This document shows positions 1,321-59,154 of a stretch of 64,000 nt of DNA, one piece after another. The notes under the pieces are model-generated. The model searched no databases. It saw only the letters and a list, made by a program, of their open reading frames with translations, and was not told the origin of the DNA. The stretch comes from Minutocellus sp. GHC0000111 (lineage: Eukaryota), in contig OZ361258.1 of the NCBI GenBank assembly GCA_977018835.1, positions 3,782,001 to 3,846,000 on the forward strand. The letters run 5' to 3'. The position numbers were made by a program, and so were the translations under genes. Position 1 is the stretch's first letter. Every line of letters begins with the position of its first letter.

Positions 1321-2040
1321 ATGGACAAGTACCGACTCGTAGGGGAGCGTCGACCTGGGGAAGAGGCGGCCGCTGCAGCTGCTGCATCTGCATCCGCTGT
1401 AGCTGACGAGGGCGACAGCAAGCCTCCTGCTGTCGACAAATCGGCGCAACCGGCACAAGCAGCATCTGCTGGTGCCAATGCGGGAGAGCAGGCATCAGCA
1501 GAGGGAGCAGGTGCTGCCACCAGCGGTACTGGTAGTGGTAGTAGTGGTAGTTCTGATCCCAATGAAATACGCATAACGCAGCAGGGCAAGCCACGGAATT
1601 ACATCTCGTACGCCATCGGCTTGTTCGACCAGGAGGACAATGACAGCATCACTCTCAAGGCGATGGGGAGGGCGATCAACAAATGCGTTACGATTACAGA
1701 CATCCTCAAGAGGAAGATGCCTCTCCATCAGATCACCAAGCTATCGTCCGAGGAGATAATCGACGTCTTCGAACCGCTCGAGGAGGGCCTTGATGTGGTG
1801 GAAAGCAAGCGTTACGTCAGCTGTATGGTCGTGACGCTGAGCAAGACTGGAAAGAATATGGATACGAGCGATATCGGATATCAGGCACCGCTCCCCCTCG
1901 AGGACATACCTAGGTACAACCTGGAGATTTCAATAATAGGCCAACGTTTGATCGATCAGAAACTCCCACGGCAGCCGGCGGCGGTGGCGGTAGTGGAGGC
2001 GGAGATTCAACAACAGTTATGGCAAGGTAGCAGATTCTAA
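1321..2040 (+). CDS. Alba-family (Rpp25-like) nucleic-acid-binding protein; C-terminus shifted by an 8-bp insertion at 1909-1916
   Basis: MDKY start resembles plant Rpp25-like Alba. Core NEIRITQQGKPRNYISYA...ITLKAMGRAINKCVTITDILKRK...GYQAP. Removing CCTAGGTA gives a Gly-rich tail ending at TAG 2028-2030. Confidence 0.88.
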   Translation: MDKYRLVGERRPGEEAAAAAAASASAVADEGDSKPPAVDKSAQPAQAASAGANAGEQASAEGAGAATSGTGSGSSGSSDPNEIRITQQGKPRNYISYAIGLFDQEDNDSITLKAMGRAINKCVTITDILKRKMPLHQITKLSSEEIIDVFEPLEEGLDVVESKRYVSCMVVTLSKTGKNMDTSDIGYQAPLPLEDIPRYNLEISIIGQRLIDQKLPRQPAAVAVVEAEIQQQLWQGSRF

Positions 2041-6118: not shown

Positions 6119-7391
6119 TACCGGTATGGAAAGCATAATATCATATTCTCCCTGTCTAACTGTGCTTCCCATTTGTCGTAATCTATTTCTCTTTCGCTGA
6201 GCCAAAATTTCCAAATCTCTGGGTTCCAGCACACCATTGCTTTGTGCATCCAACTGGACAAACAATTCTCGTAGCTCATCAATCAGTTCTTGATCGACCT
6301 TGCCCATCGTCACAAGCATGTGTGTTATAAATTCAACCTCAGACACTTGGCCGTCGCTGTTGTCATCCATCGTCTTCAAATCTTCAAAAGGTCATTTCTC
6401 TCGAAAGAAACTCATGTTCAGCTTTATGTGCGGCCTTCGTAACGAGAAAGCCCCCAATGACACTGAGGATCTCACCTAAAATTGCAACGGACAGTGGAAT
6501 GAATATCACCGCGAAGAGCCTAGCCGCTTGAGACGCTGGAGCAACGTCCCCGAGCCCAACCGTCGTGGTCGTGATGAATGCATAATAAACCGATGTCCAC
6601 CACCCCCATCCTTCGTGTCGCCCCATGATGCCAGCGAGAACAACTATGAGCAAAATGTTTGGCGCCTGTGTGAGGACAAGATGTCTCAGAACAGTCATCA
6701 GAGTTGGTTTTGGAGCGGGCCTTACGTGAGGTACCGTGCTGTTGTCACCGGGAACTGTGAAGCTACTTATGGTAGAAGTATTTGTTGAAACAGTGTCGTT
6801 GTGTCGATGAAAACGACCTCGCAATGCGTCAACAATTCTCTGTTCTGCCGCTTCAACCGCTCCGGCTTCTGCTTCGACCAAGTTTCTGCCAATGTAGCCA
6901 AGAGTAATTCCAAGAATGCTGATTCCATACTGTGCAAAGAATACCGTAAATAATCTGCCGCCCCTTGTTTGTGGGCAGAGATCACCGTAGCCCACGGAAG
7001 TGAAGACCGTTGTAGCAAAGTAGAGGGAATTGACAATGCTCCACTTCTCGAAAATGAAGCTATATGCCACAACTGATAGGAGCATATAAATCAAAATATA
7101 GGCCGTGCAGAATCGCGATGCCCAAGAAGAGTGTGCCGCATCAACAAAGCCCTTTGTAATGCCGCTATGATCGTCGTCCTCTTCTTGATGTTTCTTCCTT
7201 TTGGCTCTCAACCATCGAGCTGTTCTTGCCCGGCTGTAAACATACTTCAAAGTTCTGATCAATGGACTCGATCCAATAATCACCTCGCGCCAAGTCAATT
7301 TGTGATGATTGTGGTAGTGATGAGCACGAAGGCAAGTCTGCCACCTTAGGGTGGTGCTTCTTCCCGGCATGGGATGTGACACCACGAGCAA
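6008..7391 (-). CDS. Two-pore (TPK/KCO-like) potassium channel with C-terminal EF-hands; frameshift at about 6385, both ends uncertain
   Basis: Two pore loops (TSVGYGD, TTVGLGD) with four TM segments. EF-hands (MDDNSDGQVSEVEF, LDAQSNGVL) lie in the next frame; removing one T from ACCTTTTGAAG gives REMTFEDLKTMDD. Confidence 0.85.
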
Positions 7392-9961: not shown

Positions 9962-10969
9962 TTATTGCAAAAGCGACTCGGTCCACAATATTTCTTCTTC
10001 AGTAGGCTCTCGAAACTTGCCAACAGATAGGTCGCCCAGTCTCACTTCTCCGTGCCTTTCTCGCTTCAGTTCCAATACAGGATGTCCGCAATTGGCCAGC
10101 ATTCTTCTAACCATGCGATGCTTGCCTTCGGTGACGACTACGCGCACATCTGTTTGTTCCATTGATTCATCGCCATCCTCGCTGGCAGTACGTTCGCTTT
10201 CAGGGACAGGATATACGTCGAGAAGGTCAGCCTGGTGGACACCCTCCGAAGTTTCGACTCCACTGCTCAATTTGTGTCTCAATTCTTCTTCGTCAACTCT
10301 CCCTTCAACTCGAGCGACATACTCTTTCTCAACACCTCGTCTAGGATGTAGAAGTCTCTGGGTTAATTCGCCAGAAGACGAAAAGAGAATCAAACCAGTC
10401 GTCTCGTAATCGAGTCTTCCAACTGGATGTAATTTATTCGATGTGGAGAACTCGCATTCCTCCAGCTTTTCACCCAGGTGGCTTCGTTCCTTGTCGTCCA
10501 TGGCCGATAATACATACTTGGGCTTGTGATAAACGAGAATGGGCGGCGGTGGACCCGGCAACTCCTTTCCATCCAAATAAAGCGTCGCTTCAGGATGGAC
10601 CTTCTCGCTTGGCCCTTTGATGCCCACGATCTTGCCTGTACTCCTGTCCAAGTAACTAATCCTCTTTTGCCTGAGCAGCTTCGATGTATGAGACCGAGTT
10701 CCCACTCCGCGATTTGATAGCACACGATCTGCTCGAAGCAGCCCGGGCTGCTTTTTCTTGTACTTTTTTGCGCCGCCTACGCCGCTCGCCTGTTGCTTCT
10801 GCTTCTCGGCATATAACGAGGTGTGAAAGAATCGGGAAGCGATGGCTGATGCGACGGGTGCAGTATCTCGGACGGTGCAGGAACTTGGAACAAATGAGCA
10901 CATGCGTTGCCGACCAGCTACCCTACACATAGAAGCGGCCAACATAGTAGTCGCCATCATGGTCTTCAT
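9962..10969 (-). CDS. RsuA/RluB-family RNA pseudouridine synthase with S4 domain, organellar
   Basis: S4-like RADRVLSNRGVGTRS; YHKP; HPVGRLDYETTGL with catalytic Asp; EKEYVA; TEGKHRMVRRML. Confidence 0.92.
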   Translation of the reverse strand: MKTMMATTMLAASMCRVAGRQRMCSFVPSSCTVRDTAPVASAIASRFFHTSLYAEKQKQQASGVGGAKKYKKKQPGLLRADRVLSNRGVGTRSHTSKLLRQKRISYLDRSTGKIVGIKGPSEKVHPEATLYLDGKELPGPPPPILVYHKPKYVLSAMDDKERSHLGEKLEECEFSTSNKLHPVGRLDYETTGLILFSSSGELTQRLLHPRRGVEKEYVARVEGRVDEEELRHKLSSGVETSEGVHQADLLDVYPVPESERTASEDGDESMEQTDVRVVVTEGKHRMVRRMLANCGHPVLELKRERHGEVRLGDLSVGKFREPTEEEILWTESLLQ

Positions 10970-11809
10970 GCTCAATTCACGTACAATATTGTGCGCCTCC
11001 TTTCACTAAGAGTAGCTGGTGGCAGTGGACGTGGTGCGGTCGGTCGGCTCTCGGTCGGGCCGCCCGCGCCGCCGATTTGCAGATTCACAGCCCCATCTCG
11101 TCTTGTTTCGCCGGTCGGATGAAGCGTTTTTCGGCAGAAGACGAACACGTCACGAAGAAACCCACAAAAACCCAATCTCGTTCGTCACCCATTCTTTGAC
11201 CGTCCAACACCATGGTGGTCCGTCGGCGTTGCGCCGGCGTATAACTATATTTTCGTACCAAATACGCATTCATTATCATGTTTGGATATAGTTGAAGCTC
11301 ACTGTATCCTCAGATTGGCCTCCGCTGCGTATCAACGCCACGAACCATCGGCCTACTTTTCCTCCATCTGTCGGCCGTTCGTTTCTCTGGGGTGGTGCCA
11401 TTGCTCCGTCTTTGTGCTCGTCGTGCTCCCGTTGTGATGCCCCAGACCCTCTGGTACTTTCCCACGTTGTTGTTGATGATAAACTGCCGGGATTGCGCCG
11501 CACCCCCCGTATGACCGACTCTCGCTGATCCCGACCGATCGCATCCCCACTCGACCTCCCCCGGAATTCCGACACAACAATTTTGCGCCCGAGGAGAGAC
11601 AGATAGTATTGGGATAAGTTTATGCAACAATCAACCCGACAAAGGGACTTTTTGGTCTGGGAGATAAATGGGTGAGTTAAGAAGGACGTGATGTGTTTGT
11701 TTGGGTGTACTATTTACTTTTTTTGCTCAATCGCGACACTGTTTGTAAAAGTTGGATTATGCAATTCATTTGTTGTTGTGCAGTAGCAGTGTAATTTCAT
11801 TTTCTAATT

Positions 11810-13445
11810 TTATACATGCCCTGCTCCCATCTCTACATCCTCATCTCCATCGGTGCCCATCATGATCATTTGTTGGCGCTTGTCATCAGTTTCTGCTTTA
11901 ACAGCTTCGGTCCTTGTCCTTTTCCTTGTTCTTGCCACCCGAGAGTTTCGCTCCCGCCTCTCCTCGACCTTTGGATTGGATGCCCTCTCCTCAGCCTTGA
12001 ACTGCGCCGTCTGTTGGGCCTCATGTCCCTTGACGCCCTGAGTCCGACGATCTTCCTTAACGCCCTCTTGGTGGGCTCGCTCTACAAACGATTCGTCGAG
12101 CCAATAGATGCCGCCCCATCCATTCTTCACTAGCCAAATGTGTGTTGGTCCAAGATGTGATCTTCGAGTAAGTGCCACTTGGGCGTCATGCTATTGCCGA
12201 TTGCCCGTGCTTGCTTGAGGGCACTTGCAATCAATGCTTCAAGCTCTCTCACAGCCTTCTTTGCCTCATCATCCCATTTCATGTACCATTTCAGAAACCT
12301 GGAATGTGTTGCGTCAAGAGTGTGGAGCAAATTAGAGCAAGCTTTGCAGAGCTCTTTGATGTCGTCATCCGTCATGCCATCTTCCTCGCGATTGTGCTCT
12401 AGGAGAGTTCCTTTGGTGGAGGTGTTGTGGTGGATGAACTCTATTGTCCTTGGTTTCTTCTTGTTGTTGCCTGCCATCAGAAATGATAAAGCTCTCCAGC
12501 ATTCTGCCAGCACTGCCCTTGTTTTACCTGAGTCGGCCGCCTCAATGCCGGCCTTTTTCAGGAAATGGAAGTGAGGGGCATCGTCATCCTCGGCATCATC
12601 GACAGCTCCCATCTCTGGCTCGCCATCACCGTGCTTCTGACGATTCTTCTCAAAGTGCTGCTGCATGCATGATGCTTCATGTGTAGCGTCCTCTCTTGCA
12701 ATGTCAGCTTCGTCCTCATAAAAGGGCACACAGTCCTCGTCTTCGTCGTCATCGTCCTCACTGATCTCGCCGGCCTCCGTCGTGGTCAGGGTGCCCACCG
12801 TCCCAACATCGTCGTCATTGTCCCACCCATCGTCCTGGCCATTATGTGCCCACCAGGGAACTTCTGGGCCTCGAGCAACATCTGCCTGTTGATTTCGTAG
12901 TCCATCGCCGCATGTCCCACCGACGTGTGTGGTGCGGCCGACTTGAGGAATGCATTGCATGCCTTCGTCAAATTGAGCCGCGGCGGCGGTGTTTCGAGGC
13001 GAAATTGTTGCTCGACCGTGACCATGTCGAAAGCCATCCATCCATCATCATGGTGGAGAGCGTCGGCTGCACGAGGATTGATAGAACCGAGGCGAACAAA
13101 CATGCTCTTTTTGTGTGGGGTTCGCTGAACGTCGTCGGCAAGGCAGTGTCTTGATGCCATTTCATCCCATCCATTCTGGTTGTCTGTCCTCACAAAAAAC
13201 ACATCGTGGTCTTCGTGTTTCTTCTTCTTCAAACCCAAGATGCCCGCAGTGTGCATGACGGCGCCGTGCATGATGGGACTGCATCCCAACACATTCATCA
13301 AGGAGTCGTTGTTGTTGCCGATGAAATTGTAGTGATGAAGTTCCTTTCTGCGAAGACTGACGAGCAGTTCAGCCAGGGCGTCCTGCACCGCAATTCTGTC
13401 TGCGGTGTTGACCGCGGGATTGCGGCCGTTATTTTTTTTGCTCAT
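11810..13445 (-). mobile_element. Decayed, internally deleted DNA transposon ORF (Chapaev/Transib/RAG1-like C-terminal core)
   Basis: Three ORFs (13445, 13041, 12178) are each offset by +2. The joined C-terminus reads MTPKWHLLEDHILDQHIW...DESFVERAHQEG, matching the TPKxHxxxxH ... ExxExxH pattern. Strongly TA-depleted. No confident TIRs. Confidence 0.6.
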
Positions 13446-13900
13446 GGAGAACTATGGATCAAGACCAACGGGAACATCACCAGGATGTCGGGAGCACCTG
13501 GTTGGTCTCGTGCCGTAATTCTCCCACACCAGCGCGAGATGTCGCCTTCGTTCTGCACGTAGCGGCGGCAATTTGAATTTTTGCTGCCATGGTGGCTCGC
13601 GTTGGGCGCGCCGGTCGGTTGCTTCGCGCGCCGGCCGGCCACCGAAAGTGCGACCAAAAGCATGCGAGTCATCCGGCTGGCAGATGGTGCTGTGGATTGA
13701 TTGAGTGTGATCGTGTCCCTCTTTCGTGCGTCATCGGCGCGATTTCCGCCACTCTGCTGCTCTGCACTTCACTTTGCAACTTTGTGAACTGCTCGTCACC
13801 ACACCATGGCTCGGTCCAACCGCTTTCCCCTTGCAAACACCATTGCTTTAGGTCTGCCTGCACTTGCATAACGCACGAGAAAAAGTATTTGCCACGCACC

Positions 13901-14563
13901 ATGGCGAAAGAAATCGAAACCCTACTCGGCCCCACCATCCTCACGAAGGCCGGTGCTCCTGCGGCATCAACCTCGTCTGCCTCGGCCCTTGGATCGGCTG
14001 AGGCATGTCTCATCTATTTCTCGGCGTCGTGGTGCCCCCCTTGCCGCTCGTTTACCCCGATTCTCAAGGATTTCTACGAAAAGAATGGCAAGAAGAATGG
14101 CATCCAGGTGGTGTTTGTCTCCTCGGACAGTGATCTTCAATCCTTTGAGGAATGTTACAAAAAGATGCCGTGGCTGAGCCTGTCCACCGATGCGGATTCT
14201 GCGTCCATCAAGCAGAAGTTGGCCCAAATGTTTCAGATTCGGGGGATTCCTTCGTTGATTGCCATCGATGCCAAGAGTGGCAAATACATTACGAATGATG
14301 CGAGATCGGATGTGATGGGTGCTGGTGGTGATGATACAAAGCAGAAGGAAGTAATTCAAAAGTGGAAAAGCATCGAGGCCGTCCCCATCGAGGAAGCAGA
14401 TTTGAGCAGTGGCGCTGGGCAGGGTGGAATCGGTGCCATCGTCACCTTCCTTTTGAGAAATCCAATTTACATATTCGGGCTTCTTTATTTCGCCCGAAGA
14501 GCTCTGGCGTACTTGCAAGAAATGGGAAGAGACGATGATGAGCAAGGTGGTGGGGAACTCTAA
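13901..14563 (+). CDS. Nucleoredoxin/tryparedoxin-like thioredoxin-fold protein with C-terminal TM helix
   Basis: YFSASWCPPCRSFTP, VVFVSSD, MPW and IRGIPSL motifs; ACCATGG start context; hydrophobic C-terminal segment. Confidence 0.92.
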   Translation: MAKEIETLLGPTILTKAGAPAASTSSASALGSAEACLIYFSASWCPPCRSFTPILKDFYEKNGKKNGIQVVFVSSDSDLQSFEECYKKMPWLSLSTDADSASIKQKLAQMFQIRGIPSLIAIDAKSGKYITNDARSDVMGAGGDDTKQKEVIQKWKSIEAVPIEEADLSSGAGQGGIGAIVTFLLRNPIYIFGLLYFARRALAYLQEMGRDDDEQGGGEL

Positions 14564-15350
14564 AAGAAAGATGTCATTAATGTGTCGTCAATGGAAACTA
14601 AATGTCATGAACAATTCCAACTAGATCTAATTTAGCAAATCTACACACACTACAACATATTGTTCATGCAGAATGTACCGGTATGTAGAGTCTACCGCGG
14701 GGGTGATGATGTTGAGCATGCACCAGCTAGATCTAGCTCTGGCGCAGTTGCGTCGTCGTCGCATCGCATGCATGTGCCTAGGCAGGCAGGACACGAGCTC
14801 GCACCTTTCGATGGTGGCTGGTGCATTTCTCTACTCATTCGTAAAGAAGGCGCTGGCTGGTGGTAATAAGAGTAAGGAGCAGAAGGCATAACTTATCGCA
14901 TAAAGGGATAAAAAGGATACATGTAATGTAACTTCGTTTACCGGCACCAGTGGGAGCTAGCTACAGCATTGTTGGGTGGAAGCTACGGTACGTGATGAGT
15001 ATACGTACGTAATGTCGTCTGTCCATCGTCCTCGGTACCGTAGTACCGTAGTACCTTTCGGTTTCAGAGGATTTGTAGAGGGTATACCAATAACCCCTAA
15101 AAAAAGGTCATTCTTGCACCCATTTCTCATTTCCCACCACGTGTTTTGTTAGTCGACATTCTCTTCGGGAGGAACGCAAATGCTCCTCAACTCGTGGATA
15201 TCTACTGGACCTGCTCATTCAGTAGGTTGCCACCGACCAGTAGTATCCACTGAATTCGCAGGTCCAGTAGATTCTGGCAGGAACACACACGTGTTTTTTG
15301 GTCCCCCGCACACCCTCTCTCTCACACCGCAACCCGCAAATTTTGTGACG

Positions 15351-18237
15351 ATGACGACGACCAACCAGACCACGCCCAAAAAATACAAACGCAGCAGAAC
15401 TTCGTTCTCAGGGAGCAAGAGAGGCAACACCAAGGCATCCAGGAAGGCGGCAAAGGCGGCAGCTGAGCCGAAAACACCATCGCCGAGCGCAAACACGTCG
15501 AAGAAGCGGCCACGGTCAAATTCGCCCGCCAAACCGTCACCGTCGTCGGCGAAGAAGAGGACGGCCCCTCCTCCTATCCCCATGGCCTTTCTCCTTGCAG
15601 CAGATGTCATTCGAAGGGCTGGTAAGGATCTGTGGTGGAGAGTAACCCCCGATTCCTGCGGCAAAGATGACATTTGTGTTGGTTCTCGGCAGAAATGGGA
15701 AGGAAGAAGACGTCCTCCCTGCTTTCATCGAGGCCGACTTGTTGCGTTCCAAGTCCGTCGGTGGAGGAAAGTGTGAGCTACAGTACAACGAGGAAAAATG
15801 GAAGGACATGCAGCAACAACATCTCAAGGAGCATTGTAGTTTGAAGTTGCACTTGTCGACGTGTCGGCCGAGAGGGAAGACAAGAGACGCAGGGCGCTTT
15901 GTGTTTGTGCTCACAGGTTGCGTAAAAAGAAGGAGGACAACCACCCGAAATTCTCTGGACCGGAGGGACAGAAGGTGCACGAGAAAAGAAATCCCGATGA
16001 AGTTCTGTTCTCTGGGCGCTCGACTGTCTTAGCTACTAAGCTAGGTGAGAGGTTGTCAGCTCACAGAAAGGAGGCACAGTCAGCGCATTGCGAAGCAAGA
16101 GCAAAATCACTAGTCGACGAGGCCAAGAAACTGGGTTGGATGCCAGCAAGTCTCCTCAGCATACTGAAGGGAACTGGTGATACTTCCGCCACTGAAGCAG
16201 CTGCAGCCTCCCCCAATGATGAAGGTTTAGGAGGAGCCGATGCTTCCATTGTCTGTGCCACCTCCAGTGACATTGATGAACAGGTAAAGGTCGCTCTCGG
16301 CCTCGACTTTGTTGTTCGGATGGCCAACGATGACATGCTCCGTCCTCCTCGTCCCAATGCAACCGTCACCGAACCAACACCAATCAGAAAAGAAAAGCAG
16401 GCGAATGAAAGAATGCGGTTCAGCGCCGTGGCTCTCGCGGATTGGTGGGGATGCGGCGACCCAACTCGCACGTGTGAAGACCGGCAACAAATTGCAACTG
16501 CCGCGTGTCGGCAAGTTGCGCACGATCACGGTCATGCCAAGTCAACCGGTGGTTCTCAGCTTTACAAGTGGAGAGACCAGCTCTACAAAAGCCTTACTGA
16601 TGGCATCAGCAATCCCATCGGCGGAAAGGAGGTTCGTGGAAGGAAGAAGGCGGCATGCACTGACATGATCGAGGAGAAGGAGCCAGGACATCTCCGCGAG
16701 CTGCATCGGCATGCTACTCGGATGAAGGGTGCGATGGCAACCTTTAAGGAGCTAGCTGACTGCATGAGCGCAAAATCAGCTACTCCAGATGAAGATAGGC
16801 TGACAATTAGTCTCCATCGTCTTCAGCTTTTTCGCTGGTGGAAAAAGCAAGGCGGTAAGGAGAAGTCGTCGATCGAGAAGCCGAGGCTCACCCCCGAATG
16901 TTGTAGGAAGCGACTTGATTGGATCGAAAAGTGGGAGGACATTACGACCGATCCCAACATTCCTTTAGCGTATCTTGATGAAAAGTGGTTTTACGCTGCT
17001 ACTCGGCGACGAAAGATCAAGATGTTGCCACTTTCTGACGAAGAACTAAGCAGTCCGAACCTCGCGTCTGTCCATGCTTCCGAGGCAAGCCCGAAAATTC
17101 GATCCAGAAGACACCCTGTCAAAGTTATGCATCTTGGAGTTGTTGGCCGACCAATGAAGGATGAAACCAAAGACGTTGATTTCAATGGGCGCATCATGAT
17201 CAAGAGAGTCGCCAGGGAGCAGAAGGTGGAAAAGCTTACGCGTAATCAGAATTTCTCTCCAGATGCTAAGGTCAACGATGCGCTAAAAAATGACAAAGAT
17301 TGGCGCGACATTTACGACGAGAATGCTGACATGACCGCCGGCCATCTTTGCGACCACATTGCCGAAATCTACGGCCTTTCTGAGTTTGTTACAGAGCGAT
17401 TGGAACTTCAATACGAGGACTATAAATCCGACGGTCAGGCAAAAAGTCGCAAGCATGCCGCTGTTGGCTACAATCAAAAGATCTCGAGTCTCAAGCGACA
17501 CACTCCTGATAGCAATGGAGAGAAGGTGAAGGTTGAGATCGACGACCTTGAGCTCGGGGTGCGGCATCAACGGGGCGATAAGGTTACCAAGGACTGTAGC
17601 TGCGACTCCAAATGGATGTTGGAGACTATGAATGAGGTCGGGAAGGCGATTCGAGACGCACATCATTGGGTGAAGTGGGATCCACAAAATATTCAGGAGT
17701 CTGATGTTATGTGTCTTATGATGGACAATGCCGGCGGTCATGGGTCCAATGAAGCAGTTGAGAAGTACACCGAGGACCTCAAAAACAAATATAAGATTGA
17801 GATAATCCAGCAGGTTCCTCGGTCGCCCGAGACAAATGTTCTTGATCTCGGCATCTGGATGTCTTTGCAGTCGGCCGTCAAAAAGGAGCATCGCGGTCAG
17901 AAGAATGATGCGAATGCTCTTGACAAGAGACTGTGATGAAAGTATGGGCCAATGTCGCATCAAAAGAGGCCTTTCTCAATGTATTTGGGTTAGGGTTAGG
18001 CTAACCCTAACCCTAACCCTAACCAGTGATATATAACAACATCAAGAGAAGTCGTGGCGGTAACAATCTTGTGGAGACCAGACGGGGAAAGGCTGGTCTC
18101 TCGCAAAAATTGCCGAGGAAGAAGCTGAAGAGGATGGTGAACCACTCTGGCCAATTGATGCTCCCGGCGAAGATGATGACATTGAGGACGACATAGATGA
18201 AAATGATGAAGACGATGGAGTCATTGATTTGCTATAA
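15351..18237 (+). pseudogene. Frameshifted DD39D transposase of element 1 (about 950 aa if repaired)
   Basis: YLDEKWF (D1), MDNAGGHG (D2) and PRSPETNVLDLG (D3), with 39 residues between D2 and D3. Frameshifts near 15665, 15925, 17928 and 18100, plus a telomeric tract at about 18000. Confidence 0.88.
17987..18024. repeat. Head-to-head interstitial telomeric repeats GGGTTAGGGTTAGG|CTAACCCTAACCCTAACCCTAACC
   Basis: Read directly from the sequence: TTAGGG units immediately followed by CCCTAA units. Confidence 0.9.
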
Positions 18238-18564
18238 CTTATCATAGCATGTCCATTTCTATTCATTACATTTTGATTTGGTGCTTCCAAAAATGCATTT
18301 TTTTCCCGGGGTGAGGAATGCAAATGTCGAAAAAAAAATCATCACATAATGTACATTTATTGGTTCTGGTGCACAATATCTCTCGACTATATGTAGAAGT
18401 TGGTGACCATAACTTGGTTCTTGCCCCGACTTCCATATTGGCCGTCATTTATTCCTCGGAGTTAGAAAAAGTGAGCTTGGATTTTTGGTCTTGTGTGGTC
18501 GTGTTTCTAATACGTCATCATCACGTCACTTTCAAATCCTCTGAACTCGAAAGGTACCTACGCC

Positions 18565-18586
18565 TAGGCCTAGGTACCTAGGCCTA
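18565..18586. repeat. Perfect 22-bp palindrome TAGGCCTAGGTACCTAGGCCTA in the spacer between the two mariners
   Basis: Self-reverse-complementary; built from TA, CC and GG units. Confidence 0.9.
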
Positions 18587-20445
18587 CGAGGTCAGATTCG
18601 CGAGAAATCGACCGCCCGGATTTTGACTGCTTTCGAGGGGATTGAAAAGCGCCTCGAAGAATAGTCATGCTGAAATATTTAAGAAAATGGCTATTTTTAC
18701 TCTAATTTTGATTTATCTTCATGTGAAACAATAATTCGGATAAGACTTTAGATTTCAGCGGCTCTAATCAAATGGACGCGTTCGTCGCACTTGGACCGGT
18801 ATACTGCTTCCCAACGAGTGCCGATGATTCATCTGATTCGGCCGCCTTCCGTTCTGTCATCGACGATCTTGCAACGGCGACCCGGCGGTATACTGCACCA
18901 TGTCTCTTTGCAATTGCCAAGTGCAGGGAGCAGGCAAAGGTGGACTATTCGGTGCTGTCCAGCGCAGAGCATGGTGCACGATTTTCGGGATGGATGAAGG
19001 CGTATGGTGCTCTACCTGCATCTGAGAAGGCGATGTGGGAGATGAAGAGGAGATCTCATCTGGCTATGCAGCCATACATTCGAGATGTTATTGTTGATGC
19101 TCTGATACGAAATCCTCGGGAATCTTGGCGGGAGCTGGAGGTGGATGTCAACTTTTGGTGTTCCTACTCGGCAATACGGCGGTGGATAATGTCGCGGGAA
19201 GGGTTCCGGTACTATGCCGAAAGGATCATCCCTCTCCTTACTACACATCAGATGGAGAAACATTTGGCATTTGCGCGGAAATTCCGAAACAATTGGGGGC
19301 TCGGCGGTGGCAAGTTTCTCCTTGTTATGTTCGATGAGAAGTGGTTTTGGGGCTTGGTTCTTCGATCGCATGCCAAGCAAGTTGCAGAATTGGGTATTGA
19401 TCCTCGGTCCTTCTCGGCATATCACCGAAATCACATCAACAAGTGCATGGTGGTGGCTGTCACTGCCTTGGCTTTTATTGACAGCATTGAGAATGGCGGC
19501 ATTGCGTTCAAGCTTGGACTTTTTCGGGCTCAGGCGCATAAAATTGCGAGGCAGATGGTAAGGGAGGCGGTGCGGCAGGCAGATGGTAGAATCAAATATT
19601 GCGGCCCGGTGGTTCGGAAGAAAGACGATCTATACCTTGTGGATTGCGCGGTGACTGGATGCAGCCATGGCACCCTTGATAATCCCAAGTTCCCACTGAA
19701 AGCTTTGTTTGAGAACAAGATATTTCCGGATGTTGAGGCTTTGGTCGGACCTGGCGGAAAGTTTGAAGGCTATGTCCCTATTTTCCAGGGCGACAATGCT
19801 GGGCCCCATGCCGAGACTGAATTTGTGGAATATGTGGACGGAAGGATACTGTCGGGACAAGGGATGGCGTTGGGAACCTCAGGCCCCGCAAATGCCCCAT
19901 ATGAATGTTCTTGATCTGTCTGTTTTCCCTTGCATGCCAAAGCAGCATACAATGTTGTGCCGCGATCGGGAGGGGCTGAAGGTTTTGACAGAGGATCAGA
20001 CTTGGGATGCAGCGGAGGAAGTTTGGATGGGGCTGGAAAACTGGAAGATCGCATCGGCATACATCCAGGCTCATAGAATTGCAAAGAAGGTAATCGTTGC
20101 AAAAGGCAACAATGATTTTCTTGGAAACGGTGAAGGCATTCATGTTGGGGTGCGAAAGGATTTCAGGCCGACTGAAAATGGCATGGTTCGGATAGATGGG
20201 AAAATTATCGCTCCTCCTCCTGCTGATCCAACCATGGATAATTAGTCCTGCGGTGCTTTTAAGTTATATTGTGTTTAATAATACTAGATTGGATTGTAGA
20301 TCTGGATACTAGCTGCTGCAATACATGTACTTTGCATCGTACATGTATTCAATGCCGGTAGATCTAAGATTCAGGCGGTTGCGGGCCCAAAAAGTCGCTG
20401 TTTTGGTCCCGACCCTGCGCTCGATTTCTCGCGAAACGGACTTGG
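18587..20445 (+). mobile_element. Tc1/mariner (DD39D) element 2, 1.86 kb, with about 29-bp imperfect TIRs and TA flanks
   Basis: Left TA|CGAGGTCAGATTCGCGAGAAATCGACCGC versus reverse complement of the right end TA|CCAAGTCCGTTTCGCGAGAAATCGAGCGC; shared 15-bp exact core TTCGCGAGAAATCGA. Confidence 0.85.
18772..20245 (+). pseudogene. DD39D transposase of element 2 with a single +1 frameshift at about 19837
   Basis: FDEKWFW, QGDNAGPH and PQMPHMNVLDLSVF. Removing one G in GTGGACG joins ORFs 18772 and 19709 and restores exactly 39 residues between D2 and D3. Confidence 0.88.
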
Positions 20446-20712
20446 TAGGTAGGATAGGAAAGCTGCATGCGAACCCGGAGGCCGTTTGAAGATGGGTCTG
20501 TCCGTCCGCCCGAAAGCACTCCTGACTGGAAGCCATCGTTGATCAGAGTTGAGCGTAGTAGCGCGCGTTCCTTTCCTTCCGATTCTCATTGATCTTGGCT
20601 CTCTTCTAATAGTACCAGTAGTTGGCTCCCCCCTTGTCGTTCCTTTCCGTGTGGCAGAGAACGCACACATCTTGAACTCGTCGTCGTGCTATCGATCACC
20701 CAATCATCAGTC

Positions 20713-22439
20713 ATGTCCAACGCAACTCCACAGTACCCCCCGGGTCATGACCCTCGGACCGTCGAGTCGTCGGCCGACATCAAGTACAACCTCGGAGACA
20801 TCGACGGAGCCAAGATGGTCTACCAGCAGGCCCTATTGGACTGGGTCGACGATGCGCGCGAGTCGTCGTCCGCCGATACCGAGGGCATGAAGAGGGCGGT
20901 GGCCGATCTGTGGATAAACTTTGCAGCCCTCAACCGCAAGGCCAACCGCTTCAAGGGGGGCACCGAAGCGTTCGAGGGGGCTGTGTCGTGCGAGATTGCC
21001 GGGAGAGATGGCAAGGTGTGGCTCGAGTATGCCAAGTATCAGGAGGAGCGGGAGCGTCACAAGACCGCGCAGAAGATTTATCTGCGGGCCTTGATCGGTG
21101 ATGACAAGAGCGGTGGAAGGCCGGGAGCCGAGGAGGCATCTCATCCCATGCTGTGGGAGGAATTTCTACGAATGACCAGAGATTTGAACAAAAACCCGAA
21201 CCTGTCGATGCAGGATCTGCGTGATGCGGTGGAGAAGGAACACGTGTCGCAGATGAAGATGGATGATGGTGGTGCCGATGGTGGTGACGGGCCACCACTC
21301 AAGCGGGCCAAGATGGAAGATGACTTGGCTAATGTTTCTGCTGCTGCTGCTGCTGCTGTTGCGGTCATGCCGATCCCAGGCCAAGGGCAACAAGTCATGG
21401 CGATTGATACCCCCGTAATCAATGCAGAGAGTATTGAGAAGGAGACGGCCGAAGCTGTTGACCGGATGAAGGAGCTTTCGCCGGATATTTCGGCTGCGTG
21501 GTTCGCTCGAGATGGATCAGACTCACCATCCCGACCTGAACCTCCTCTCTTTACTCCGTCTCCGCCCAAATTTTCCGATGCCACTGGAAGGGAAGTTCTT
21601 GGCGATGAGCTCGCTCTCAAACTGATCCAAATGCTTCTAAAAAAGGATGAATCCGATCAGTCTGGAAACATCCTGTTGGATGTATGTCGCGCCTGCTGGA
21701 TGATGACTGCTCTGAAGGAGAAGGAGGCGTCCAAGGCCATTGAGACGTTGGATAATAAGATGGTAAGTGGTGGTAATCACGGCGGCTTTTCGTTAGATTT
21801 TTATTTTTGATTCTGTTCTATATTCACAACCATCAAATTCACGAACCTCTAATGAAATTAACACAGAGTCGCGATCTGGAGGCCCTCGAGGCAACGTTGG
21901 AATCGCGGGCGTCCGTTGCGGGAGAGGCGGCTCTCGCGGCAGTCCAAATGATCAACGATGCGGAAAAAAATAACTTCCTCGCTGGTTGCAATCAAATTCG
22001 GCAGCAGCTGATTGATGGCCATGCGTGGCAATTCCGTGAACTCTTGGCAGTGCAGCAGCAGATTATGACCAAGGCAGGTGTTCCGTATTTCGAAGGACCG
22101 ACGGTGGATGCGTCTATTATACACATTCAGGCCAATATTTGTGCCTTTATGCATTCGGCCTTTTTCCTCCGTGCAAGGATTGGAGAGAAACAACATTTGG
22201 CCATGCTAACGGCGCAGGAAAAGCGGCTTGCAGAGGCTGTCAAGTCGGCGCCGCCATCGTTTCCGCCAGGTGTTGGTGGTGGTTATGGTGGGGGCGGTAT
22301 TCCCGGGCAGTATCAGCAGCAACCGCCACCGCAATTTGGTGGATATCAGATGCAACCGCCGCCACCACAGCAGATGTACCACATGCTTCCACCTCAAGGT
22401 ATGCCACAACCTCCTCCTGGGCCGAATCCTTATGCTTAG
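20713..22439 (+). CDS. HAT/TPR-repeat protein with Pro/Gln-rich C-terminus; two exons (intron 21763-21866)
   Basis: HAT-like LWINFAAL, VWLEYAKYQEER..AQKIYLRAL and LWEEFL. A phase-0 intron GTAAGT...ACAG joins DNKM to SRDLE. Confidence 0.7.
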
Positions 22440-22533
22440 GCCTACTACATAGCTAGTAGCGAGAACGTCGTTGTAGGGATCCCTACAGCTATTAATTCAA
22501 GGTTAGTTCAATATTTATTGGCAATCCTATCAT

Positions 22534-23637
22534 TTATTTGCTCTTCTTTTTGCCCCCCTTTTTCTTTTTGCCCTTGCCCTTGGTAGATGAGGAGCATCGA
22601 TTGAGAGCATTGAATATTGCTTCATCTAACACACTCTTTGGTTCAATTTTTATTGTATGGACTCGCTTGTTGTCTTGAAGGCTCGGTAGCAGGGCCCGTC
22701 CTCCTTCGTCGCCAATACAATTGAGCGTCAAATCGATTGTTGTGAGAGTAGGGTGAGCGGCAACAGCTGGGCCGAACATGCCTAGTGCTGACACATCGTC
22801 CGATGTGGATCTGATGCCATTGTCGGCTACAACAAGTTCCACGAGCGAGGATTTCTGGGGTAGACCTTGCGCGACGCTCTCCAGTCCTTTCCCACCGATT
22901 TTATTTCCAGTCAGATTGATAGATGTGAGGGCTAATCTCTTGAACGACAACATCTCCGCAATGCTCGCAGCTCCGTCTGAATCAATGTTGCAGTACTGGA
23001 CACTAAGACTTTTTAGTGTTGAGTTTGTTCTGAGGCCCTTGCATAAGGCAGAAATGCCCTCGGACTTGAGATCGCTGTTGTGGTCGAGCCTCAGCGAGGT
23101 AAGGGTGGTGTTGGTGGCGCAGGAAAGCGACCTGCCCAGCGCAAAGGCTCCACGGTGACCTATTTTGCAATCCATTAGTTCCAGGAATGAAATGTTGAGC
23201 TCCTTGGCACCGAGTCTGAGTAATTCGGCCAGCGCCACAGCTCCGTCATCTCCGATCCGCGACCAACATATTCGGAGATCGGTCAAGAGCGTGAAAACGA
23301 TTGGCTCGCCGGCCTCTGTGACGGGTAACCCACACCCTCTGCCCAATAATGCCATCGTCAGTGCTCGACATCGACCGGGGCCGAGAAGATTATCGTCCGA
23401 TTCGCCGTCTTTAGCACAGATAGCAATCTGCTTGCCGTGGTTTTCGTTTTCGGTTGCATCTGCCTTTTGCTTCAGTGCCACGATGACGGGATCATTTGGT
23501 GATGGAGAAAGTCCGATTGTGACACAGACCTTTTTATATGATGCCAACAATACCGCCGGGTCTTTGCCTTGGCAATCATCATTGTCGCCTCTCGTCTGCT
23601 TTTTGGAGTCGCCGCCCTTTTTCTTTCCCGAGGACAT
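22534..23637 (-). CDS. Ribonuclease-inhibitor-type leucine-rich repeat protein with Lys-rich termini
   Basis: Repeated LxxLxLxxNxIG.xG...L units; KKK-rich N- and C-termini. Confidence 0.85.
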   Translation of the reverse strand: MSSGKKKGGDSKKQTRGDNDDCQGKDPAVLLASYKKVCVTIGLSPSPNDPVIVALKQKADATENENHGKQIAICAKDGESDDNLLGPGRCRALTMALLGRGCGLPVTEAGEPIVFTLLTDLRICWSRIGDDGAVALAELLRLGAKELNISFLELMDCKIGHRGAFALGRSLSCATNTTLTSLRLDHNSDLKSEGISALCKGLRTNSTLKSLSVQYCNIDSDGAASIAEMLSFKRLALTSINLTGNKIGGKGLESVAQGLPQKSSLVELVVADNGIRSTSDDVSALGMFGPAVAAHPTLTTIDLTLNCIGDEGGRALLPSLQDNKRVHTIKIEPKSVLDEAIFNALNRCSSSTKGKGKKKKGGKKKSK

Positions 23638-23829
23638 TGCTTCATGTGCTACAGCTCGGTGTGGTGTGTTGTGGAATGAGTACGAAACTAACATGACACA
23701 TCAGTTGTCATGTTAGTTTTCCAATTCCCACGAGATCTGGACTTGGCACTTTTTACTCCGGCGGGTTCAGAAATGACAATGTGGCCACCGAGGACTCGAC
23801 TCATCGCCCTTGCCCTGTGAGATAGCACC

Positions 23830-26800
23830 ATGGAATCTGTGGCTTCGACCCTTGACTTTATTCGCAAGCAGTCAGCCGCGAGAAGATCTGATTACAATGA
23901 AAGATGGAAAGTAGATGTGGATGTGAATACGGGTGCAGGTACAGATGCAGATGATGATAAGAAGGGGCGCTCTCACTTCGCAGTGGCGCCTCTAGTCCCT
24001 CCTCGTCCATTGGTGGAAGCAGATGATCCTTCATCATGCATTGGTGACCACATGTACGAATATGCCGCCTCCCCGACCACAAGTACTTCGGCCGCTATCC
24101 CTTCTTCTGCAGCTCATAGGACTGACGGGCAACGATACGTTGTCGAGTACTACCCTCCCGGCAATGCTGCTACTGCGACAGACTTTACTATTGGCAGCCA
24201 AGAACGAAGCGTCTCGTCGTATGTTCGTGCCACGGCGACCGATGCATCTGTCTATTCACGAGCGAGCTACAGCGATTACTCCCTGCCGTCGTCTGCTCCT
24301 ACCACTCGTTCCACAACCGATCGGCTACATCGCGCAGGATCATTGTTGCAGGGGTTGTCGTATGCTGAGCTGGATCTCCCCGTCAATGCGGACGCCGTCG
24401 ATCGTCTTCGGGCAAAGTAAAATAGATTGTCGAGTGAGAATAGTGGTGGAATCGGCAGCCAGAGCCGGATCGATGATATTGGCGCAAGGAATAGATCAGC
24501 TAGAGCATCAGCGTCGATAAGGAATTGTCCTGTGCCCAGTATTGTCGATTGCATTCCTGACGATTCTGCAAGTGCAGTCGAAACAATAACGGTCGCTTCT
24601 TTCCCTACGCGGTCACGTCATCTCCCTCTTCCTCCTTCTCGACCTTGCAGCGCCATGAGCGCAATATCATCAGCTAGCCGGTTTAGTGCTAGTACCAGCA
24701 CTACAGGTGCCAGCAAGAAGCGACCTCATCCGGCTACGAATTGTGTATTTGACCCTTCCATGATGCAGGGATCTCGGCGGGCAGCACTCAAGGCAGCGAA
24801 GCGAGCCAAGGACGAGGCAGCGGCCAAGGCAGAAGAGCGTCGCATGAGATTATTCAAAGCGAGACCACTGCCCTGCGGAGGGACCGTCACCAGCAATCTC
24901 TTTGCACCGACAATGGCTAGTACCAATGCTAGGGCAAGTGGAATGGCCAATATGCATAGCATTGTATCGGCATTACCGGCGTCTATGATCACAGGCAATG
25001 GTAGTCGTCCTGGTACTAGCCATTCTAGAGCCTCCAGGGCAAGCTTTTCGTCGCTGCCAGCATCCTTATCGCGACATTCTTCTGTTGATTCAAGAAATCG
25101 GACAAGGAGCGATACTCATAGTACGCGTTCTCTCAAGTCAGTTTCGCCACTGCGGTCTGCCCCATCACCAACAGTAGTAAATCGACGGAACGCTGCAAAG
25201 AGAAGAAAATTTTTGGCAGAAATCGATGAAGAAATTCGGACTGAGATGGACGTGGCCATTGTTCCGTATGACGAAGAGTTTGCGAATGACAGTGACGACG
25301 TGTCGGTCGCAAGTGATGGTAATGATATGTCGACCCTGCAGCATCAGATTGCCATATTGGAAGCCCAGCTACGGCAGACACGTTCCTATAATGAACGAAC
25401 GTTGGACGAAATCGAAGCTCTTGATCATTTGGAGGACATTGATTGCAAGAACATTACATTTGACCAAGACGACGAGAATACCAAATGCAGGGGGCAGAAT
25501 TTTTCATACAACGAAACTCCACGTGACAATCCTCGTTGTACTAGAACAACTGGTACCCCATCGCGTCCACCATCTGCCATCGACTCGCTCTACCATCGTC
25601 AGGAAAAGTGGGCATCTACTGTTGAGAAGAGATTAGAGGACGCTCGGCTGAAAAGAGCCGATGATATCATGAGTGGTTTCACCGGTAAGCCGCAGATTGG
25701 CAGCACAGGAGATTCCTGGCAGCGAGCCAAGGCGGCGCACGATGCCGTCGTTCGACGAGTCAGCAAGGAACCAGAGCACGAGGAGGTCCGTGGAGGTGTT
25801 CATGAAAAAAAGGAAGAGACGGCAGTCAGTCCAAGTTCGAAGCTAGAAGAAGAAGCTGATACGATCAAATCAAATACAAGGCCAGTCGATAGGAAGAGGC
25901 AGGCCGATTATGCAGAGCGACTCGCTCGTCCTCGATCAATTGCTGTACCTCCTGCGCCTGTCCCGAAAGAAAAAGGACGAGATAGCGATGAGATAGACAC
26001 CAAGAACAAGCTAATGGTGCCGAAATCACCTTTTCTTTCTTCCAATGACGGAAGGCAGACCGTCAAGACATCTAGTCAAACTCCAACAATCGATCTCTTG
26101 ACCAACGTTGATACATTGGCTTCCAATGGGGCAAGGAAAAATCATGTTTCGAATGTTCCCAACGAGAACAACAAATCTTTTGCTGACATGAACGATAAAG
26201 AATTTGCCAACATCATGAGGAGACTTGGTATCAAGAGCATTCCAAAGACCAAGGGAGAGAAGAGCAAGAAACCATGTGCGACAATTTTGTCGTTTGCTAC
26301 CCTTGACAACGAGACGGCGAACAAGCTGCCCCTGGAAGCTTATTTGGGCTCATCGCCCAAGTCCAATGGAAAACGGCCGCCAAGATCACCACCAACAGGT
26401 GGAGGTCGATTCGTCAGCTCGGAGGCTCAAGCGAATCTACTCAAGAAGATTACAGATCAAGAGAGAGACGCCGTTGCAAAGAAAATTAGAGGACCAGTAA
26501 GGTCTGCAGAAAGTGCTTTCTCTAATAATGGCAGAAGCTCGTCGATTGAAAGTAGCAAAGCTGATTCAAACGTCACCTCGAGCTCGTCTGGTAATACTGA
26601 AGTCGAATTACCGACAACGAGGGTACCCGCACCAGCAGAAGCCCGGCAGATGGAAAATTTTCTGTCGCTCAAGGAGCCATATCAGCGATACGAAGCAGGC
26701 CAAGCACCGTTTTTTGATAAAAGCTCCAGCGACGAACGTGGCCGGTTTCGTGTCAGGGATGCGTCTTCCTTTGACCCTACCAGCATGAGACAAATCGTTG

Positions 26801-37059: not shown

Positions 37060-37245
37060 TGGTCCGGAGAATAGCCAAATTTTGGCAAAAAAAGAGACAA
37101 CTGCGAAATTCCAACTTTTCACTGGGTGTCGCCCGCGAAGATTTTTTTTAGAAGTCTGTTTCCTGCCAATATTTGGCAAGAAAGATCGAAATAAACGCTC
37201 TTTTCGCCGGTGTTTCTTGCCAGTTTTTGGCTATTCTCCGCACCA
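37060..37245. repeat. About 30-bp imperfect inverted repeats bounding a 185-bp segment (MITE-like)
   Basis: GGTCCGGAGAATAGCCAAATTTTGGCAA (37061) versus TTGCCAGTTTTTGGCTATTCTCCGCACC (ends 37244); internal hairpin TGCCAATATTTGGCA. Confidence 0.55.
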
Positions 37246-48562: not shown

Positions 48563-50001
48563 ATCGAGAAGAGATGGAGGAGGTAGCTGCTCCTGGCCTG
48601 GCCAAACTCCTGTGCCAGGTGCATACCACTTGCCGCGAGAAGCACGGCGTGCAACCCCGTCTAATTCTATCTTCTCAGCAACCCATACTGGCCTCCGTCA
48701 TCAAGGTCGAGGAGGAGGAGGGAAGGGCCCACAAACCGGGTTAACTATTTGATAGGTGGGATAAGGATGATTTCTGGGCACAGCTGCTTCTCGGTGCGGC
48801 AGGGCCGGAAGCACAGCTCATGCAATCCATTGAGAGCAGGAACCAGAGTCTTTTTACTGGTTCGGACCCCCACGCCCACCTTCCTCACCGACTTGTGGCA
48901 CACACTTTATTTCTTGTCGAAGAGAAGTACGAATGCACGGCGGTGAGCGATCATCTCCGTGATCCCTCTGCACAATCGTCATCATCACTTGAGCCTCTCG
49001 GGAATATGACCAGTGCTACTACTAGCGGAAGCCCCGACGAGCATACCGCGGCCAACCGTGACTTCCGACTGCAGGCTCATGTTTGGGAGTTTGAGACCGA
49101 CGTTGGCGTTTCCTTCAATTCGGGAGAGAACATCAAGCTGCAGTGGCGAGTGCGAAACATCAACAATGTACTCAAACCACGGAGGGGGCACGTGCTTAAG
49201 AGTGATGGCCTTGTGGTGAAGAAGTGTGGACGATGGATCTATTGAATGATGAATGTCTTTATATTTAATGTATCATATCAGCCGAACCATATACGCGATG
49301 AAACGGACACGGAGCTATTAGAGTCTATTATCTTAATTTTTGCTAAAAAGACTAGCTAGTAGCTAGCTAGCTAGCTAGGTAGGTATTTTCGCAGCACTCC
49401 TACTCTGCTAAACACAGTGCGAGTTCTACTGATTGCGCCTGAAATTCCAATATCTGCTGCCTAAATTCGTGGCTAGCTCAGAATCTCTTGTACCTGCTAT
49501 CAAATCTCCCGAAAAGAACAGGATCGACGAAACACTTCGTCTTCGCTTGCACGTAAACTTTCACCATGTGAAAATCAAGGGAGTCAAGTCGAATCTAAGT
49601 TGTCTCTAAGATGGGATTCTACGTCAGATTCTATAACAATATGCGATTTTACAGATTTATAAGTGCAGTTCGTAGCTGGAACCAAAACAAAATGAGAGAT
49701 TAAGTTCTCTCATTTATGATGGCCTCTTCGTCTTGATTTTTTTGCGTTATAAAATAAATTGTGTTTTGCTTGTGATTTTGTTTCGAGCCTTGAATCCTTT
49801 TTGCAATTGTAGTTATCTTTTGCGTTGAATTCCTTCATCTCAATGGGGCCTTGTCGTTATGGTGCTTCGCTTGGGTAGCATAGCTTGTGCATTGTTGGCT
49901 GGACTCGACCTCGTCTTGAAGCGTAGCGGCTTGATACGATGGTAGCTTGAGGGCTAAGCCTGCCCGCAGCTCTCTATCTCTAGCTAGCTACGTAGCTAGA
50001 G

Positions 50002-51518: not shown

Positions 51519-51574
51519 TAGCAGATCTAGAGCTAGAGATCTAGATCTACGTAGATCTGCGTACATGTAGTCTA
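51519..51574. repeat. Mosaic of short TA-flanked palindromes (TAGATCTA, TACGTA, TACATGTA)
   Basis: Read directly; similar tracts at about 4173, 7976-8051, 14621, 44817, 49353-49385 and 49981-50004. Confidence 0.7.
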
Positions 51575-51692
51575 ATCAGAATCTTCACATTGCGTCGTTG
51601 ACTTTATTACATGTAGTTAGATCTACAAGTGTGTAAAATACATAGCTAGAATAAATATTACAAATCAGCAACTATATCTACCAGTGCAGACT

Positions 51693-57208: not shown

Positions 57209-59154
57209 ATGAACAACGAAGAGGATATGGCAACTGCCGATGCGTCGGACATGAACGACATTGATTTGGAGGGTGACGGACCCGACGCTTCGCAGCTTCC
57301 CTCCGTTGAGGAGGTTCGGACGAACCAATCCCTTGCCCCCGACGCGAACGAGACCAAGCGCCGTCGGAAGAAGTGCTACCTGTACAGCGCCATCCTCCTG
57401 ACTCTGGCCTTGATCGGCCTCATCATTGGTGTGGCGGTATCCAAATCCAAGTCGAGCTCGGGGGGCAGCGCTCAGTCGGTCGCACCTCCGGCGCCCGTGC
57501 CCAGCCCAACCGCTTCGGCGCCATCCCCAACCCGGCCGGCCCCGACCGCCGCCCCGGAGATGACGGATGCCGAGCGCGAGAAGGCCGCCCGGGCCTTCCT
57601 CATGACGACCGGCGTCTCCGACGAGGACGACATGACCAACTCCGGTACTCCCCAGCACAAGGCCCTTAAGTGGATCAGCAAGGAGGACACCCTCCGAGTT
57701 CCGATCCCGTCGAACCCCGAGGACCTTGGCACCACCAAGGCCCGCAAGTTCGTCCAGCGTTACCTAGGTACGCCCTGGCCACCTTCTACTACGCCACCGA
57801 GGGAGACTCGTGGTTCTACCCCTTCTCCTTCCTCTCCGGCAAGGACGAGTGCGAGTGGTACGAGATTCACACCGAGGGCGAGGAGGTGTACTTCTGTGGC
57901 GCCCACTGCGAGGGCGGATCCGACGAGGGCGCCGTCAGTCAGATCTGGCTCCCCAACAACGACATGGCCGGTACCATCCCCCAGGAGCTCGAGCAGTTCA
58001 CCAACCTCCGCGTCTTTGCCCTGGAGTACAACCTCAATATCACCGGAACGCTCCCCGATGCCTTCCATTCCATGCCCGACCTCAGCGTCATTGTCCTTTC
58101 CAACAACATGATCGAGGGCAAGATCCCGTCCAGCTTCAAGAAGCTGTCCAACCTCGAGTTCCTCGCCGTCGATGACAACCAGATGGAGGGCAACCTCAAC
58201 CACATCAAGGACCTCGACACCCTCAAGTACGTGTATCTGGAGGACAACTTCTTCGCCGAGTCTCTTTCGGACTCGACCTTCTCCGGATGGTCCAAGCTCA
58301 AGCAGTTGGACTTGTCCGACAATGAGCTCAGTGGTACCATCCCCGCCTCCCTTCTCAACCACGAGCACCTAACCGTCCTGGACTTGCACGACAACGATCT
58401 GACTGGTCCGATCCCCGAGGTTCCCAGCAAGCAGGACAAGCTCACCTACCTCGCCCTTCACAAGAACTCGCTCAGCGGACCCATCCCCAGCACCATCAAG
58501 CATCTTCAGGCCCTGACCGACCTCGATCTGTCGCACAACCAGCTCACCGGAGACATCCACGAGTCACTCAAGCACCTCAACCTGGTCTACCTCTTCCTCG
58601 GTGAGAATCAATTCGATGCCAACCCCGTCCCCGCCTTCCTCAGCGGTATGACCAACCTCACCGAGCTCTCCCTCAAGCATACCAACCTGCACGGTCCCAT
58701 CCCCGACAGCTTCGGTGATTTGACCGACCTTTACCTCCTCGATCTGGACAAGAACAAGCTGACTGGTACCATCCCCGAGTCCCTTGGAAACTTGGACAGC
58801 CTCATTGTTCTCATGCTCAACCGCAACCGCCTTACCGGCACCGTCCCCCAGGCGCTCGGCAACCTCCCCGCTCTTGGCGTTCTCCTCGTTGATGGCAACG
58901 ACGGCCTTTCGGGATCACTCGACTTTATGTGCACCTCGACCGGCGGCAACGGCACCTTCTTCGCTCTTTCGGCCGACTGTGGCGGTGATTCCCCCACCAT
59001 CGACTGCAGCAATGCTTGCTGCAACATCTGCTGCGGCGACCCCGACGAGAAGTGCGACGACATGGGTTGGACTGCCAACTACGATCCCATCTGGGAGCTC
59101 AGCTACGAGCGGTACCGCTTCGAGTTTGACATGGAGAGGAGGATGAGGGAGTAA
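57209..59154 (+). CDS. Diatom-type LRR receptor-like protein with N-terminal TM; frameshifted by an 8-bp insertion at 57763-57770
   Basis: TM helix, Pro-rich stalk, PQHKALKW, QRY|ALATFYY, ECEW, many LxLxxNxLxGxIP repeats and ADC....C..CC. Strong codon bias continues across the break. Confidence 0.92.

Follow-up and report, generated by a model that had tools for sequence, protein, structure and literature searches.

Identical 8-base insertions in an Alba gene and an LRR gene, likely excision footprints of a Tc1/mariner transposon

In the window (the whole 64-kb stretch of DNA analysed here), two genes carry the same 8-base insertion. Footprint 1 (TA + CCTAGG + TA, 1907-1916, no strand assigned) lies in the coding sequence of an Alba gene. 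Footprint 2, which is identical to footprint 1, lies in an LRR gene (57761-57770, no strand assigned). We regard it as very likely that both insertions are excision footprints of a Tc1/mariner DNA transposon with the ends CCT…AGG. Mariner excision footprints are textbook knowledge; the present case combines frameshifts in exons with an empty allele for comparison and with nearby elements that are candidate donors.

The same word is inserted at two sites

When the whole 64-kb window was searched, TACCTAGGTA was found at 1907-1916 and 57761-57770 and nowhere else. The word common to both sites is 11 bases long, TACCTAGGTAC. At both sites, the simplest reading is a change from TA to TA-CCTAGG-TA with a net gain of 8 bases, and deletion of 8 bases from any start between 1907 and 1910 (or between 57761 and 57764) gives an identical empty site. 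A previous reading of the sequence only (hereafter, the sequence-only reading) had proposed that an identical 8-bp insertion occurs twice, each time at a frame break, and this was confirmed at 1907 and 57761. Its view that two exact copies are unlikely by chance was also borne out: none of 100 dinucleotide shuffles contained even one copy of TACCTAGGTA. The insertion is the derived state.

The insertion replaces the C-terminal tail of Alba

The Alba (Rpp25-like) gene is located at 1321-2040 on the plus strand, encodes 239 amino acids as it stands, and was assigned by Pfam PF01918 and homologues. Residues 81-143 matched PF01918 with an E-value of 4.5e-17 and 62 bits against a gathering score of 25, and several homologues are named RPP25 in their sources. 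In this respect the protein resembles other members of the family. It differs from them in its C-terminal tail, which is replaced in this allele, while the Alba domain is intact and untouched by the insertion. Residues 1-196 are native, and residues 197-239 are a 43-aa new frame, which takes the place of a 37-aa native tail. The predicted effect of the +8 frameshift is the replacement of the low-complexity tail of Alba. The frames are as the sequence-only reading had given them, PRYNLEIS… with the insertion and IQPGDFNNRPTFDRS… without it, and the open reading frame indeed reads through 1321-2040 despite the insertion.

The search for Alba homologues was performed with residues 78-239 as the query; 267 proteins were found and 120 of them were listed. 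The closest homologues were 93-99% identical, yet they covered only 73% of the query and ended at the insertion. The [IM][QM]PGD frame was kept in all 17 closest homologues that were aligned, and was present in 47 of the 120 listed (267 found). Among the 120 listed, PRYNLEIS occurred only in P0001, which is the window's own protein, and no footprint peptide signature (YLGT or PRY at a break) was seen in any of the 267 proteins apart from P0001. The alignment to orthologues, which had been set as a test beforehand, shows that the PRYNLEIS frame is not that of the orthologues and that the native frame is IQPGDF… (17/17 closest). A Gly-rich native tail had been expected of an Rpp25-like protein. 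Such a tail is present in close relatives, but is absent from P0016-P0018; because these three proteins do not possess it, the Gly-rich tail is not a conserved feature of the Alba family. In the database, P0001 is entered with the wrong-frame tail as though this were the native one; lesions of this type are missed by gene callers. At position 1701, the window haplotype encodes Asp where all 17 aligned Alba homologues have Glu; Asp is also found in X5 (see below).

The insertion is absent from an otherwise matching contig

Contigs from X1 and X2, two samples under one organism label, spanned 1729-2054 with the insertion present and 0 differences. In contrast, a contig from X5, which belongs to another study, showed 0 substitutions relative to the window over 1729-2198 and did not possess the 8 bases at 1907. 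This contig, whose depth was 8.4, was also without 1 base at 1893 and 2 bases at 2099. Because X1 and X2 carry the insertion and X5 does not, we conclude that the insertion is real and that it arose on the window haplotype after the split from the X5 copy. The assembly may itself have been made from X1 and X2, in which case they are not independent support for the organism, and this point speaks for an artefact of assembly, polishing or a library junction. However, the insertion was found without difference in separately assembled contigs from two samples, with depths of 152 (X1) and 198 (X2), and a duplicated TA in place between colinear flanks is not what a ligation junction would give. An artefact is therefore extremely improbable.

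The above depths of the spanning contig compare with two-haplotype sums of 193 and 251. The contig is 21% below diploid depth in both X1 and X2, which corresponds to about 46% of words being single-haplotype. Contigs such as this one drop variants, and hidden heterozygous differences at the Alba site are likely. Because the depth of the spanning contig falls short of the two-haplotype sum, we lean towards a heterozygous Alba insertion, as the depth hints. No element-filled allele at 1907 was seen among the X1, X2, X5 and X7 contigs, which show presence and not absence. The cover of the RNA run X7 excludes 1660-2199, and X7 gives no evidence about expression there.

Two haplotypes were seen at 1300-2300 in X1 and X2, with 34 listed substitutions in 1 kb, and both haplotype types were also present in X5, a different study. 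These two haplotypes possibly reflect a hybrid or an old polymorphism. P0003, which possesses the native tail, showed 2 mismatches and 2 gap columns to the second X1/X2 haplotype versus 8 and 7, respectively, to the haplotype of the window; it is identical to neither, so that zygosity is not settled by P0003.

The insertion also disrupts an LRR gene

The second gene (57209-59154, plus strand) encodes a membrane LRR protein with an N-terminal hydrophobic segment, and its homologues are 641-707 aa in length. Twenty-six homologues were found, which were 71-98% identical over the searched part. In 6/6 aligned homologues, VQRY-ALA is continuous across the break at 57761. The frameshift follows residue 185 and leads to a predicted 300-aa product, which ends before any LRR. 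Thus, this LRR allele is predicted to be knocked out by the +8 frameshift. The label of one homologue starts with 'Minut', which we take to be Minutocellus, a centric diatom. At about 57897, Cys is encoded on the window haplotype where 6/6 LRR homologues have Trp.

With both genes in hand, a change at the level of mRNA or protein can be weighed: the insertion might supply a splice donor, so that part of the new frame is spliced out of the mRNA, or the changed C-terminus of Alba might be a fixed and functional innovation. GT follows AG at both sites (AG/GTAC at 1914 and AG/GTACG at 57768), and there was no separate insertion-free contig at 1907 among the X1 and X2 contigs. However, the homologues are colinear across both sites and have no intron there. 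Further points against this explanation are the reduced depth of the site contig with its likely hidden heterozygous differences, and the fact that the new tail occurs in no other protein among the 120 listed. We consider this explanation, in either form, highly improbable. The two lesions probably arose recently, and probably only one haplotype carries them.

Two Tc1/mariner-like elements lie between the insertions

An inverted-repeat search of the window gave two adjacent elements, A and B. Element A (15054-18554, plus strand) is a Tc1/mariner-like element of 3.5 kb with 25-nt inverted repeats, the ends CCTT…AAGG, TA on both flanks and a DD39D motif. The transposase of A is broken by frameshifts in the window copy. 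The catalytic spacing is 39 in A and 38 in B. The DDD motif was found in 82 of the 105 homologues of A examined, and the spacing was 39 in 67 of these and 38 in 15. Of the 275 sequences in the A transposase cluster, we read 40 and listed 15; many are truncated and one, with 831 residues, is nearly whole. None of 20 closely related A transposase copies had YLGT or PRY at a break. At 17986-18024, the A transposase is interrupted by a telomere-like insert, in which TTAGGG units precede CCCTAA units. Homologues read FGKLPV or FEKLPV at this place, and the overlying X7 contig has 34 gap letters in all. The insert may derive from a captured piece of telomere or be a tiny element.

Element B (18583-20449, plus strand) is also Tc1/mariner-like, and has 33-nt inverted repeats, the ends CCTA…TAGG and TA on the right. 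Its transposase possesses DEKW, DNAG and NVLD motifs, which give DD38D once a 4-bp insertion is discounted. A match to HTH_Tnp_Tc3_2 (PF01498; E-value 1.5e-6, 28.8 bits) was below the Pfam cut-off of 31.5. When metagenomes were scanned with the end pattern of B, one locus, L001, was obtained: positions 1-1970 of this metagenome contig contain a relative of B, which is 81% identical and has about 1.7 kb more at the 5' side. Thus, B of the window, which is 5' truncated as compared with L001, is probably an internal deletion derivative. On its left flank, B reads TA-CCTAGG-end in the window and TA-G-end in L001, whereas TA directly follows on the right. Because TA is separated from the end by CCTAGG or by G, the true left terminus of B is uncertain. 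The end pattern of A had no match in viral or prokaryote contigs, and transposase searches in these contigs found no relative.

Because both transposases in the window are broken, the donor would be another copy. Contig depth over A and B was about 10,000-24,000 as compared with about 190-250 on single-copy DNA; this ratio of roughly 50-100x is a crude measure and does not give a copy number. A PIF/Harbinger element with a 3-bp TAC or TAG duplication was considered and rejected: the neighbouring transposases possess Tc1/mariner motifs, and A is flanked by TA.

The 28-bp spacer between A and B (18555-18582, no strand assigned) reads TA CCTACG CCTAGG CCTAGG TA CCTAGG. The window contains six CCTAGG words, and three of them are in this spacer, which also holds a copy of the first six bases of B. 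The spacer is likely a stack of footprints. A joint connects 18582 to 15048 through eight letters in X1, X2 and X3 (the length of the left arm is not given), so that a further TACCTAGGTAC would lie about 12 bases ahead of an A start. Just left of A, at 15036-15053, GTAGTACC is found in tandem; these are possibly more stacked scars. Another joint, at about half depth, skips A, B and about 285 bases of the left flank (14768-20446), and continues from the terminal TAGG of B.

Excision of a mariner element as the likely cause of the insertions

Three features of the two sites agree with excision footprints. There is a single TA in the empty state and there are two TAs bounding the scar, as seen in the X5 contig at 1907 and in the homologue frames at both sites. 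The inner CCT + AGG are the terminal bases of the A and B ends, and CCTA/TAGG with a 2-base overlap fits the ends of B. Furthermore, a candidate donor family with matching ends is present and is repeated in the genome. The element would have inserted at TA with duplication of the TA. On excision, staggered cuts would leave bases of the element ends on both flanks, and end-joining would seal the gap. In the case of a B-type element, two 4-nt CCTA overhangs could pair via their terminal TA and be filled in to exactly CCTAGG. In the case of an A-type element, 3 + 3 bases joined without microhomology would give the same CCTAGG word. We somewhat favour a CCTA-ended donor like B over a donor like A. 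Such self-annealing of CCTA overhangs would explain how independent events yield the identical word. We also rejected a hairpin footprint of the hAT type: at neither 1907 nor 57761 do the inserted bases repeat the adjoining flank in inverted orientation.

The two empty sites share TACnnCCTGG, so that 6 of 8 flank bases agree. In a post hoc comparison, 2.1% of 200,000 random pairs of coding TA sites (from 977 such sites) shared as much, which gives a P of about 0.02. The shared flank may reflect a target preference, may be due to chance or may point to templated repair. In templated repair without a transposon, a break at TA would be patched from the CCT of the nearby flank in both orientations, and the shared flank would make the two results identical. 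However, the flank is CCTGG and not CCTAGG, the duplication of TA requires a separate explanation, and three CCTAGG copies lie stacked next to transposon ends that do not have this flank. Templated repair is accordingly an improbable origin, and we prefer excision of a mariner element.

TA-palindrome-TA 8-mers are in excess in the window. Thirty were observed, as compared with 4.3 expected from a third-order Markov model of the window, and 24 of the 30 were in the quarter of the window outside the long-ORF mask. TACCGGTA was observed 5 times (at 6119, 14676, 34031, 45048 and 56853) with 0.47 expected. All these words may be scars left by the same transposon family or by others. Dense runs of TAGC, TAGATCTA and TACATGTA occur in the intergenic regions 49352-49381 and 51520-51625, and are candidate footprints of other families.

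Comparison with known footprints

The footprints of Tc1 and Sleeping Beauty are TACATGTA and TAC(A/T)GTA. They resemble the present insertions in that a TA-bounded scar arises from element-derived overhangs. In contrast, the words and the overhang lengths differ.

Mariner-like transposases are described as duplicating TA on insertion and cutting inside the ends on excision, which results in overhangs and footprints (PMC4561436). The footprints given for Osmar5 and Ppmar2 contain 1-4 bases (PMC9632168). For Stowaway, footprints of the form TA-end bases-TA and re-insertion at an old footprint are reported (PMC1925063). The insertions share the duplicated TA around 1-4 bases per end with the footprints described for Osmar5, Ppmar2, 14T32 and Stowaway in the beta-amylase intron of Triticeae (PMC9632168, PMC1925063, PMC4561436). 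The likely stack of new insertions on old footprints at the present locus also has counterparts in DD39D mariner-like and Stowaway elements, as these sources describe them. However, the footprints of those elements are described as diverse, whereas an identical palindromic 6-mer is found here at two independent exon sites. In rice, only 8 of 94 excisions are reported to have left just two copies of the target site duplication, and most were messier (PMC4423477). Because most rice excisions are reported as messier, the identical scars need an explanation.

The ends also differ. Plant mariner ends have the consensus CTCCCTC (PMC4423477, Table 1), whereas the ends here are CCT…AGG, with CCTTTCG in A, and the host is a diatom. 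Element A resembles the PlantMar family (PMC7325037) in its DD39D spacing, short inverted repeats, TA flanks and length of 3.5 kb. In contrast, PlantMar is described as limited to flowering plants and a few oomycetes (PMC7325037), and B is DD38D. The word 'diatom' does not occur in the main text of PMC7325037. We describe A as DD39D-like by its sequence motifs and do not file it in PlantMar because its ends differ from the plant consensus and the host range given in PMC7325037 is narrower. Among the papers listed by a literature search of mainly open-access journals, none was on diatom mariner footprints.

Possible consequences for the genome

We tentatively propose, although we consider it rather doubtful as a whole, that a diatom mariner family with CCTA ends and self-annealing overhangs leaves one stereotyped, frameshifting scar, prefers TACnnCCT targets and has recently peppered exons. 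If this is true, an extrapolation from two hits per 64 kb would give hundreds of frameshifted alleles in the genome, and some of these, like that of Alba, would have new expressed protein tails. Counting the scars would then show the extent of a recent burst, and the element would be a candidate for a mutagen native to diatoms. Should this density apply to the whole genome, recent transposon traffic would genuinely contribute loss-of-function alleles and new C-termini in this diatom. An active copy could serve as a native tagging tool.

Other repeats in the window

A third high-depth repeat is located at 11014-13694 and has no obvious inverted ends. This repeat has an empty allele, which X1, X2 and X3 show as a joint between 11013 and 13695 with about half depth. 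The RNA run X7 gave two GT..AG joints on the plus strand within the repeat, and long ORFs are present on the minus strand; one of these minus-strand ORFs was scanned and had no match to a transposase family. In addition, a MITE-like sequence of 186 bp is located at 37060-37245, with 33-nt inverted arms that are 85% complementary.
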